From positions 14,226 through 78,225 of the forward strand of contig CALLRP010000006.1 of NCBI GenBank assembly GCA_938014335.1: 64,000 nt of DNA, written 5' to 3'. This document shows, in pieces, positions 16,900 to 18,428 of the stretch. Below the pieces are notes generated by a model. That model saw nothing but the letters and a program-made list of their open reading frames with translations, was not told where the DNA came from and did no database searches. The stretch's first letter is position 1. Each line of letters opens with the position of its first letter. The stretch is from an uncultured bacterium. Lineage in GTDB: Bacteria; Hydrogenedentota; Hydrogenedentia; Hydrogenedentales; Hydrogenedentaceae. A program made the translations under genes and the position numbers.

Positions 16900-17181
16900 G
16901 AATTTAAAAAAAATTCTACAGAAATATTAATCGTATTATTTTTTGTTTCTATATGTTTATATATATAATTTTATCTTATATCTTCCATAAGTTTTTCTTA
17001 TATTTACTTTTATACAAATTTGCGAAAATTAATGATTATTTGTAATAAAAGCGTATTTTTCATAACTCATTAAATTTCAAACACATAAAAAGAATGAGTT
17101 ATCTTTTGTTGAATTAATGAAAAAAATGAATATAAATAAAATAATAATTTTATATGTAAATAAAAATATTCAATGAAAAGT

Positions 17182-17211
17182 ATAAATTATGTTGACAAAT
17201 AGTATCTATAT
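17182..17211 (+). promoter_or_regulatory. Putative sigma-70-type promoter (TTGACA, 18 nt, TATAAA) upstream of the small basic-protein gene.
   Basis: The elements read ttgaca-aatagtatctatatgtag-tataaa, about 95 nt upstream of ATG 17306. The 5'UTR contains an inverted repeat, aagttgt...acaactt. Confidence 0.4.
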
Positions 17212-17305
17212 GTAGTATAAATATTATTGGTATACCACAATATAAAAGTTGTGTATGCCCTGTGTATCTTACAACTTATGTAAACTAATAAAAAGGAGAA
17301 TGGAA

Positions 17306-17401
17306 ATGGCTACAGCAAAAAAGGCCGCTGCAAAGAAGGCTCCTGCGAAGAAAGCCGCCGCAAAGAAGGCTCCTGCAAAGAAAACAGCAGGCAAAAAGTA
17401 A
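17306..17401 (+). CDS. Small Ala/Lys-rich basic protein (31 aa; 33 aa if it starts at ATG 17300), histone H1/Hc1-like. It is below the ORF-track length cutoff and so is not in the track.
   Basis: The translation is MATAKKAAAKKAPAKKAAAKKAPAKKTAGKK. An AAGGAG RBS lies 7 nt upstream. A strong terminator follows immediately. It is an isolated transcription unit inside a 400-bp AT-rich intergenic region. Confidence 0.6.
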   Translation: MATAKKAAAKKAPAKKAAAKKAPAKKTAGKK

Positions 17402-17430
17402 AGTAGGACAATAATTGCCACTCTTTTCAA

Positions 17431-17467
17431 GTACAGGTCACATTTTTATGTGACCTGTACTTTTTTT
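17431..17467 (+). terminator. Rho-independent terminator.
   Basis: gtacaggtcacat-tttt-atgtgacctgtac forms a 13-bp perfect stem and is followed by TTTTTTT. Confidence 0.8.
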
Positions 17468-17565
17468 GTATGTAGTCATTTTTTGATTGAAATTTGAGTC
17501 AATAAAAAGTCTTTTCGTAAGATTAAGAGTATTTTCGATAATATTTAATAAAAAGGAAAATTTTA

Positions 17566-18428
17566 TGAAACATTCCCTTTGTCTTTTTATGTGTTTAATA
17601 ATTGCTTCTAATATTATTTTAATCTCTAAGCCAGGTTATGCCGAAGACACTATTAAAGTAATGACTTTTAATCTCCGATATGGAACTGCTATGGATGGTC
17701 CTAATCATTGGAATAAGAGAAAAGATATTCTTGTAGAAGTTATAAAGATGTATGACCCTGATTTATTAGGGACTCAAGAATGTCTTGATTTCCAAGCCCG
17801 ATATATAGCAGAACAAATCCCGTCTTATTCTTATGTGGGAAGAGGGAGAGAAAAAGATGGTTCCAGTGAACAGACCGCCGTATTTTATAAGAAAGATTTA
17901 TGGGAAGTTTTAGATACAAAATATTTCTGGATTTCAGAAACCCCCGAAGAACCGGGCTCCAAATCATGGGATACTGTTTGCACGAGAATTGTCACATGGT
18001 TGAAATTAAAATATAAACCATCAGGTAAAGAGGTTCTTTATATTAACACGCATTTAGACCATAAAGGTGAAATTGCCCGTCAAAAAGGGGCGGAGATGAT
18101 ATGTGAAAGAATTAAAAAAGATGGAGACAACGTACCTGTTATCATCACAGGCGATTTTAATGCTGTAGGTGAGAAATCAGAAGCATGGAAAATTTTTATA
18201 AATAATGGTTTTAATGATTCATGGTTAAAAGCAAATGAAAAAGTAGGTCCACTAACGACATGGTGTGGATTTAAAGACCCCGATATGAGTTCAGATACTC
18301 GTATAGATTGGATTTTATATCAAGGACCTTTACATCCGTTAAAATCGGAGACTATTATTTACAATAAAGAAGGAAAATATCCTTCTGACCATTTCCCCGT
18401 AATAACTGTTTTCAAATGGGGCTTATAG
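17566..18428 (+). CDS. Secreted endonuclease/exonuclease/phosphatase (EEP) family protein. The start is moved to the ATG at 17566.
   Basis: It has a signal peptide (MKHSLCLFMCLIIASNIILISKPGYA). EEP motifs are present: ...FNLRYG..., TGDFNA, and the C-terminal SDHFPV. An RBS, AAAGGAAA, lies before 17566. Confidence 0.8.

Follow-up and report, generated by a model that had tools for sequence, protein, structure and literature searches.

Can a run of 31 codons encoding a simple repeat be a gene in its own right, and if so, what would its product do in the cell? This question is raised by a small open reading frame (ORF) at 17306..17401 (+) of a 64,000 nt stretch of contig CALLRP010000006.1 (assembly GCA_938014335.1), which comes from an uncultured member of the Hydrogenedentaceae; the whole of this stretch is referred to here as the window. 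The ORF consists of 31 codons and a TAA stop (ATG GCT ACA GCA AAA AAG ... AAA AAG TAA), includes 12 Lys and 13 Ala codons, and is built at the DNA level from a 15-nt tandem unit with a higher-order period of 30 nt, equivalent to 10 amino acids (aa). Its product, MATAKKAAAKKAPAKKAAAKKAPAKKTAGKK, is composed of six xxxKK pentads, with no other content and no flanking sequence, and matches exactly the translation reported in the original prediction, which had been made from the letters of the window and described the peptide as pure Ala/Lys/Pro.

The gene is real and conserved, and is a minimal stand-alone form of known bacterial polycationic repeat proteins rather than a new system. Its independent transcription is supported, and its patterns of substitution and codon usage suggest that it is almost certainly translated. 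By analogy with better characterised polycations, the product is on balance probably an abundant, disordered cytoplasmic peptide that neutralises and compacts polyanions, chiefly chromosomal DNA and/or RNA, in a sequence-independent manner.

Conservation and coding potential of the ORF

The ORF is located in a non-coding island of 665 bp (16900-17564) between the stop codon of an acyl-CoA ligase gene (16899) and the ATG of the next gene (17565). In agreement with the earlier description of an AT-rich tract of about 660 bp, the GC content of the island is 0.25 overall and 0.20 when the ORF is removed, compared with 0.50 for the ORF itself and 0.355 for the window. The statement that the gene is unannotated and too short for ORF calling does not apply universally, as the exact 31-aa product has been predicted by a gene caller on a metagenome contig in ENA.

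Relatives were obtained as 80 loci from species-representative genomes, retrieved with the upstream acyl-CoA ligase, the closest match to which is found in Candidatus Hydrogenedens terephthalaticus (95% identity), followed by metagenome-assembled genomes of Hydrogenedens and Hydrogenedentota; the window itself is assigned to Candidatus Hydrogenedens. The small ORF is present between the ligase gene and a gene of the endonuclease/exonuclease/phosphatase (EEP) family, the product of which is probably secreted, in L003, L004, L006, L007, L008 and L009, these being all the loci with 84-95% ligase identity that extend far enough; further copies occur on a metagenome contig (L141) and in a Logan assembly (L203). 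Loss of the ORF from close relatives had been proposed as a check on the gene, and it is retained in these sequences. The adjacency of the EEP gene is likewise conserved across the clade. It is through this conservation of the whole cassette in seven other Hydrogenedens sequences, and not through signals within any single sequence, that the gene rises above chance.

The variants of the peptide encoded by these relatives (MATAKKAAAKKAPAKKAAAKKAPAKKAGCKK, MAATKKAAAKKAPVKKAVVKKAPAKKAGCK, MAATKKAAAKKAPAKKAAAKKAPAKKAGCK, MAATKKAAAKKATAKKAPAKKAATKKGCAKK, MAATKKAAAKKATAKKATAKKAAAKKGCAKK and ...APAKKKAGCKK) have a length fixed at 30-32 aa, and the ORF is 70-95% identical to its orthologues, as against 33-67% for the spacer between its stop codon and the terminator. 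All 12 of the 12 Lys positions are invariant, with codon changes restricted to AAA/AAG and never leading to Arg. Within the 26 gap-free codons, variable sites are distributed 6/3/15 over the first, second and third codon positions, and the ratio of extra synonymous codon types to extra amino acid types is 18:10 in the sense frame, against 12:13 for the antisense frame with the same wobble positions and 3-5:21-23 for the remaining four.

The choice of Lys codons is also distinctive. AAA accounts for 81% of Lys codons in the long ORFs of the window (1044/1294), whereas 8 of the 12 in the peptide gene are AAG, an excess with a binomial p value of 4.5e-4. Similarly, Lys-Lys pairs are written AAA-AAA in 64 of 121 cases genome-wide, but in only one of 40 in seven orthologues. 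Ribosome sliding and polymerase slippage occur on poly(A), and the observed usage is consistent with a message that is translated and is kept free of poly(A) tracts. Together, the substitution pattern and the codon choice indicate selection on a translated product. The candidate explanation that this is a chance ORF within a repeat was rejected.

It is nevertheless conceivable that the conserved product of the locus is a non-coding small RNA, or a protein encoded on the opposite strand, where a 53-aa ORF (17269..17430 (-), MKRVAIIVLLYFLPAVFFAGAFFAAAFF...) forms a hydrophobic mirror (FFAGAFF...) of the AKK repeat. A short transcript between two conserved hairpins would suit a small RNA, but no family of Rfam 15 reached its gathering score in the window, the best match when the island was scanned with greater sensitivity attaining 23.4 bits against a required 58.7. 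A known small RNA or riboswitch was thus rejected. All orthologues keep the antisense frame open, and its ratio of 12:13, given above, reflects the wobble positions common to both frames; however, the AKK repeat itself forces the frame to be open everywhere, no start codon or Shine-Dalgarno (SD) sequence is conserved for it, and it begins in the non-conserved spacer, the segment that varies most between relatives. Furthermore, the promoter, SD sequence, invariant ATG and polarity of the terminator all belong to the + strand. It is also the sense frame that gives the most favourable synonymous ratio, and no Lys is replaced, even by Arg. Either form of this explanation is therefore considered highly improbable, and the antisense ORF is a by-product of the repeat, albeit one that could mislead ORF finders.

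Transcription signals and RNA structures

The gene is preceded by a near-consensus sigma-70-type promoter. The TTGACA-18-TATAAA arrangement noted previously was found at 17192-17197 and 17216-17221, and is conserved in the aligned loci (Table 1); it is missed by a generic promoter scan only because this requires the sixth base of the -10 element to be T. TTGACA-N16-19-TATAAW occurs once in the 64-kb window, at the promoter of the peptide gene, although this uniqueness is not significant by itself, with 0.36 occurrences expected and 30 of 100 shuffled sequences containing at least one. The A/T-rich block that adjoins the -35 hexamer is possibly an UP element or an operator.

The AAGGAG ribosome binding site that had been reported is present at the expected distance from the start codon, and is invariant in the orthologues. 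AAGGAG-N7-ATG is found six times in the window, compared with an expectation of 0.69, and at least four of the five other instances are starts of long ORFs, including that of the neighbouring ligase. The start ATG at 17306 is invariant in the orthologues, whereas an in-frame ATG at 17300 is only 1 nt from the SD sequence and is missing from L006, L007, L008 and L009, so that 17306 is taken as the conserved start.

The leader contains an inverted repeat, aagttgt (17247-17253) and acaactt (17271-17277), that featured in the original prediction. It does exist, with 12-nt arms that are 83% complementary, but is broken in four relatives (L004, L006, L007 and L008). The structure that is conserved is instead a hairpin at 17229-17259, and the two are mutually exclusive, since both use GTTGTG. 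This hairpin folds in all seven orthologues (7/7), with free energies of -11 to -18 kcal/mol and z scores of -2.8 to -6.0; pair 6 has changed from A-U to G-C, and the inner stem has been rebuilt in L007 and L008. These values come from folding each sequence individually, as MAFFT/RNAalifold misaligned L007 and L008 and so understated the hairpin. The stem-loop would be positioned at the predicted transcription start or no more than about two nucleotides from it. Classically, an mRNA such as that of ompA is stabilised by a stem-loop at its extreme 5' end, and by analogy the leader hairpin may have the same role.

Two smaller features of the leader were noted. The sequence CCCTG(T/G)G, represented in the window by CTGTG at 17260-17264, is kept in all orthologues directly 3' of the hairpin. 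A 5-bp long-range helix suggested by RNAalifold, between CCUGU in the leader and GCAGG near the 3' end of the ORF, was rejected as too weak and dependent on the alignment.

Downstream of the ORF, the hairpin and run of seven T residues described previously were both found, although the stem extends to 15 bp rather than 13 bp. Compensatory double changes affect six of the 13 consensus pairs of this stem among seven species. The succession of a short ORF, a terminator and, 96 nt further on, a gene on the same strand is also that expected of an attenuator, in which the progress of ribosomes over the 12 Lys and 13 Ala codons of a regulatory leader peptide would control the terminator (17429-17469), and hence read-through into the EEP gene; an extreme bias towards two amino acids, as seen in this peptide, is typical of attenuator leaders. 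Such a mechanism is disfavoured because consensus folds of the whole cassette revealed no antiterminator, in that no conserved pairing alternative to the terminator was found and the terminator hairpin was the sole conserved structure past the stop codon, because the 27-nt spacer is the least conserved segment, because it is the sequence and length of the peptide that are conserved, and because the downstream gene encodes a secreted phosphoesterase unrelated to the supply of Lys or Ala. The cassette also has a dedicated near-consensus promoter, and genes of the same type exist as isolated monocistronic units in other lineages. Attenuation therefore appears to be a very unlikely function.

Properties of the peptide and its probable partners

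The peptide has a mass of 3064.8 Da, or 2933.6 Da for the 30 residues left without Met, a pI of 11.0 and a charge of about +11.5 at pH 7. No secondary structure was predicted by AlphaFold2, for which the confidence score (pLDDT) was 68, and this model suggests that the peptide is intrinsically disordered. Were it to form a helix, lysines would be spread evenly around it, and the helical hydrophobic moment of 0.09, compared with 0.35-0.46 for melittin and magainin, implies that the peptide is not a membrane-active amphipathic molecule. This is relevant to the suggestion that such a short, strongly cationic product might be exported as an antimicrobial or cell-penetrating peptide directed against neighbouring cells. 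Synthetic PAKKA and AAKKA peptides do enter eukaryotic cells, but the Pro-containing peptide derived from Ku is non-toxic (PMC10739243). Moreover, the product lacks any signal or leader peptide, and the adjacent genes include none for an exporter or other transporter, for immunity or for maturation, so that this role is considered very unlikely.

Resemblance to the tails of H1, Hc2 and BpH1 had been proposed, and holds with regard to composition; homology, by contrast, is not demonstrable, as the peptide fell short of every curated family threshold. The best Pfam match was to HC2 (PF07382), at 16.7 bits against a cut-off of 40, while the NCBIfam models for Hc2 (NF038052; 15.5 bits against 135), the Burkholderia/Bordetella H1-like proteins (NF038053; 18.1 against 80) and the Rv3852 family (NF050153; 19.3 against 100, with the match covering the repeat region only) were also below threshold. 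No Pfam match to eukaryotic linker histones was obtained, 31 aa is too short for a winged-helix domain, and AlphaFold2 predicted no folded element. A phmmer search of 1.84 billion cluster representatives gave 24 matches at E <= 1e-3, all of them long AKKA-repeat proteins, a result that is uninformative as to short homologues, and a protein search with a padded 50-aa query gave three proteins, matched through non-repeat words. The likeness to the H1 tail, Hc2 and BpH1 is thus compositional as far as the sequence allows it to be judged.

Within these limits, the comparisons are instructive. Chlamydial Hc2 consists of consecutive pentamers of two basic and three mostly Ala residues, with Val, Thr and Pro also used (PMC2848022), and so matches the peptide exactly in composition, with its combination of two basic and three small residues, and resembles it in the even spacing of positive charge, and in being encoded by short DNA tandem repeats prone to in-frame insertions and deletions. 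It differs in its length of 165-237 aa, its 36-aa higher-order repeats and its conserved non-repeat flanks, where the peptide has 31 aa, a 10-aa period and no flanks; no sign of a developmental cycle was seen in Hydrogenedens. The Bordetella BpH1 and Burkholderia type of protein has the same pentad composition, but is typically 130-200 aa long. Many metagenomic proteins of the Burkholderia type start with MATAKKAAAKKA, as the peptide does, and are encoded by monocistronic genes with a strong SD sequence, and there is, besides, a short form of 39 aa (P0003/L204); the search pattern imposed the shared N-terminus, which consequently does not represent independent evidence of common descent.

Similar low-complexity PAKKA, AKKA or KPAA polycations form the tails of HU/Hlp, Ku, HbhA, AlgP/PhaF and, as the C-terminal domain, eukaryotic H1. 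Tails rich in Lys, Ala and Pro bind DNA independently of sequence, bridge or condense it, or bind polyphosphate (polyP) granules (PMC3553676, PMC10665949, PMC9239181). In these proteins the tail is appended to a folded domain that gives specificity or dimerisation, whereas the peptide is the repeat alone. Repeated origins have been proposed for such tails (PMC3553676), so their similarity does not imply homology. A further parallel is found in Coxiella burnetii, in which the very small basic DNA-binding proteins ScvA and Hq1 accumulate in a cell form with a condensed nucleoid (PMC4766238). Unlike the peptide, ScvA is a stage-specific protein of an obligate intracellular pathogen and has no pentad repeat. 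It is a protein of some 30 aa, rich in Arg and Gln.

The experiments closest to the peptide are those on designed 15-20-mers, (AAKKA)n and (PAKKA)n, derived from Ku and tested in vitro and on mammalian cells. Their sequence logic is nearly identical, although the natural peptide has six repeats, in which AAAKK and APAKK alternate. Four-repeat AAKKA and PAKKA peptides displaced dye from DNA at about 15 uM, condensed plasmid with reversal of its charge, and protected it from DNase; the Pro form, PAKKA, was disordered, and three-repeat peptides were approximately 10-fold weaker binders (PMC10739243). Likewise, the AKKA-rich C-terminal domain of HbhA is both necessary and sufficient for DNA binding (PMC10665949), and the PAKKA tails of Hlp and Ku bridge DNA (PMC3553676). 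On the basis of these AKKA and PAKKA experiments, the six-pentad peptide should bind polyanions electrostatically and without sequence preference.

An abundantly made polycation is the most economical reading of the locus because the promoter, A/T-rich block, both hairpins and strong SD sequence are combined with this peptide chemistry. A monocistronic transcript of approximately 240 nt (about 17229-17469) would be produced from the sigma-70-type promoter, and would be protected by the stem-loop at its 5' end and by the hairpin of the intrinsic terminator at its 3' end. The strong AAGGAG site would drive its translation at a high level, and as Ala at position 2 predicts removal of Met, a mature product of 30 residues may be expected: six pentads, each comprised of three small residues (Ala, Pro, Thr or Gly) and Lys-Lys, amounting to a free-standing 'H1 tail'. 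This polycation would then bind polyanions through its charge, so compacting DNA and/or RNA.

The same polycation might have a different partner, namely polyP granules, as for AlgP, or the ribosome and its rRNA, as for the small proteins bS22, bL37 and bTHX, in which case it would not be a protein of chromatin. The KPAA-repeat tail of AlgP is found at polyP granules, the spacing of which depends on it (PMC9239181), and AKKA repeats also occur in RplV, a ribosomal protein of mycobacteria (PMC10665949). A product made in stoichiometric amounts with the ribosome would be consistent with the strong expression signals, and in another lineage a short AKKA gene (L106) directly follows the end of a gene resembling that for ribosomal protein L27. 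On the other hand, no NCBIfam model of a ribosomal protein was matched at E <= 1, including those for the tiny basic proteins bS22, bL37, bTHX and Sra, and the genes around the locus include none for ribosomal proteins or polyP metabolism. Known tiny ribosomal proteins are rich in Arg and Lys but are not pentad repeats, which counts against a place in the ribosome. Taken together, partners of these kinds are accordingly regarded as possible but rather unlikely.

Several observations weigh against the binding of DNA or RNA by an abundant polycation as the general function of this gene. The ligand is deduced purely from composition, and the shortness and low complexity of the peptide mean that homology to any characterised protein cannot be claimed. 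At this locus, the gene was found in the low-GC Hydrogenedens clade only: a strict six-frame scan of the 80 ligase loci, allowing only Lys, detected it in the close clade alone, while a relaxed scan of the same loci that admitted Arg was swamped by high-GC noise. Relatives with ligase identity of 71% or less (L010 and L013, both high-GC) lack the ORF at this position, where other genes follow the ligase, so that the gene is not an indispensable component of chromatin throughout the phylum, unless it is located elsewhere in those genomes. Every relative examined (L003, L004, L006-L009, L141 and L203/P0001) has a Cys near the C-terminus, in the context AGCKK, GCAKK or AGCK, which the window peptide lacks. 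It reads TAGKK at this point (17384-17395, compared with 8029-8040 of L003), the change from A-G-C-K-K to T-A-G-K-K involving an inserted ACA and a lost TGC, with frame and length kept. Finally, the terminators of L007, L008 and L009 have a weak T run, and in those sequences the hairpin may therefore serve less to terminate transcription efficiently than to stabilise the 3' end.

A bolder extension of the DNA- and RNA-binding polycation can be formulated, although it is distinctly unlikely. The peptide would be a 'bacterial protamine', the smallest known dedicated protein for condensing the nucleoid or RNA, made in bulk as the main macromolecular counter-ion and perhaps forming coacervates with DNA, RNA or polyP in Hydrogenedens. 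It would represent the extreme of a largely overlooked class of monocistronic AKKA micro-proteins of 20-100 aa that spans phyla, begins with MATAKKAAAKKA and escapes both tryptic proteomics and searches for homologues.

If the peptide is expressed as its signals suggest, an array of Lys/Ala pentads would be a functional unit on its own, without a folded partner domain, and would provide a minimal natural model for charge-driven compaction of DNA or RNA, or for condensates. The practical stakes are modest, given that the biochemistry is predictable from known AKKA and PAKKA tails and that the organism is uncultured. No mention of the gene was found in the literature on Hydrogenedens/NKB19.

Related short genes and other features of the locus

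A degenerate scan of metagenome DNA for M-A-[AT]-[AT]-K-K-A-A-A-K-K-A identified at least 120 loci (L083-L202). Among the matches listed, 116 of 120 begin with MATAKK (MATAKKAAAKKA), and most encode either AKKA proteins of 130-200 aa or an AKKA tail joined to a SWIB-like domain; the same matches also include stand-alone, monocistronic, terminator-ended AKKA genes of 20-97 aa from unrelated GC backgrounds. Judged by composition, the Hydrogenedens gene is the short extreme of this widespread class. Common descent does not follow, since the scan pattern imposed the shared N-terminus. Genes of this kind exemplify a blind spot, being below ORF-length cut-offs, masked as low-complexity sequence and, at the protein level, shredded by trypsin, and for these reasons they are probably more abundant and more widespread in uncultured phyla than is recognised.

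Very short AKKA genes were observed in L105 (- strand, ORF start 1493, reversed coordinates), L106 (the gene that follows the L27-like end), L096, L198 and L116. The short genes of other lineages each have their own terminator-like hairpin, and comprise a 20-aa version, MAATKKAAAKKATKKTAKKK (GC 0.44), as well as versions of 51-63 aa. Among the longer matches listed, the pure repeat proteins of 130-200 aa have the upstream sequence cttgatcaaggagaa, and in many others the AKKA tail is followed by a conserved ...RTPNAAFMKALTPS...PRTEVTKKVWEYIKKH... domain, which we take to be SWIB/MDM2-like.

Table 1. Positions of sequence features in and around the peptide gene, given in window coordinates.
Feature	Position	Strand	Description
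A/T-rich block TTGAATTAATGAAAAAAATGAAYATAA...	17110..17190	+	Directly 5' of the -35 hexamer; kept in the window, L203, L003, L004, L006 and L009
-35 hexamer TTGACA	17192..17197	+	TGTTGAC invariant in 7/7 aligned loci
-10 element TATAAA(T)	17216..17222	+	18 nt past the -35 hexamer; GTATAAAT in five loci, GTATATAT in L007/L008
5'-terminal stem-loop GGTATACCACAA...TTGTGTATGCC of predicted mRNA	17229..17259	+	7-8 nt past the -10 element
Remaining 5' untranslated region	17260..17292	+	AAACTAATAAAA conserved before the SD sequence; holds the 3' arm (17271-17277) of the non-conserved repeat
Shine-Dalgarno AAGGAG	17293..17298	+	7 nt 5' of the ATG; AAAAAGGAGAA invariant in all orthologues
Non-conserved spacer, stop codon to terminator	17402..17428	+	33-67% identity to orthologues
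Intrinsic terminator	17429..17469	+	Perfect 15-bp stem (17429-17462; six GC pairs), 4-nt loop, 7-T run

The gene downstream of the cassette (17565-18428), on the same strand, belongs to the EEP family (PF03372). Its product has an N-terminal hydrophobic segment, MKHSLCLFMCLIIASNIILISKPGYA, resembling a signal peptide, and is probably a secreted nuclease or phosphatase. Together with the acyl-CoA ligase and this EEP phosphoesterase, the genes around the locus encode a HAD hydrolase and an amidotransferase.

Two further motifs are found within the island, upstream of the A/T-rich block. The first, CTTAT-N8-ATAAGTT-N4-CTTAT at 16960-17003, consists of an inverted repeat with a third, direct copy, and lies about 200 nt 5' of the peptide promoter; its TTAT, ATAAGTT and TTAT elements are invariant in seven Hydrogenedens loci amid drifting flanks. 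It could be an operator for a regulator of either the peptide gene or the ligase. The second is a perfect 10-bp inverted repeat, ATAACTCATT and AATGAGTTAT, separated by a gap of 21 nt (17062-17102), which has decayed in L203, the closest relative, and is therefore probably not functional.

In addition, two independent assemblies break at this locus, at the ends of the ENA contig (L001/L002) and of the L005 contig. One break is 52 nt past the stop codon, inside the terminator hairpin, and the other 230 nt past the stop codon of the ligase; possible causes are the internal repeat, differences between strains, or additional cassette copies at other sites in the genome.

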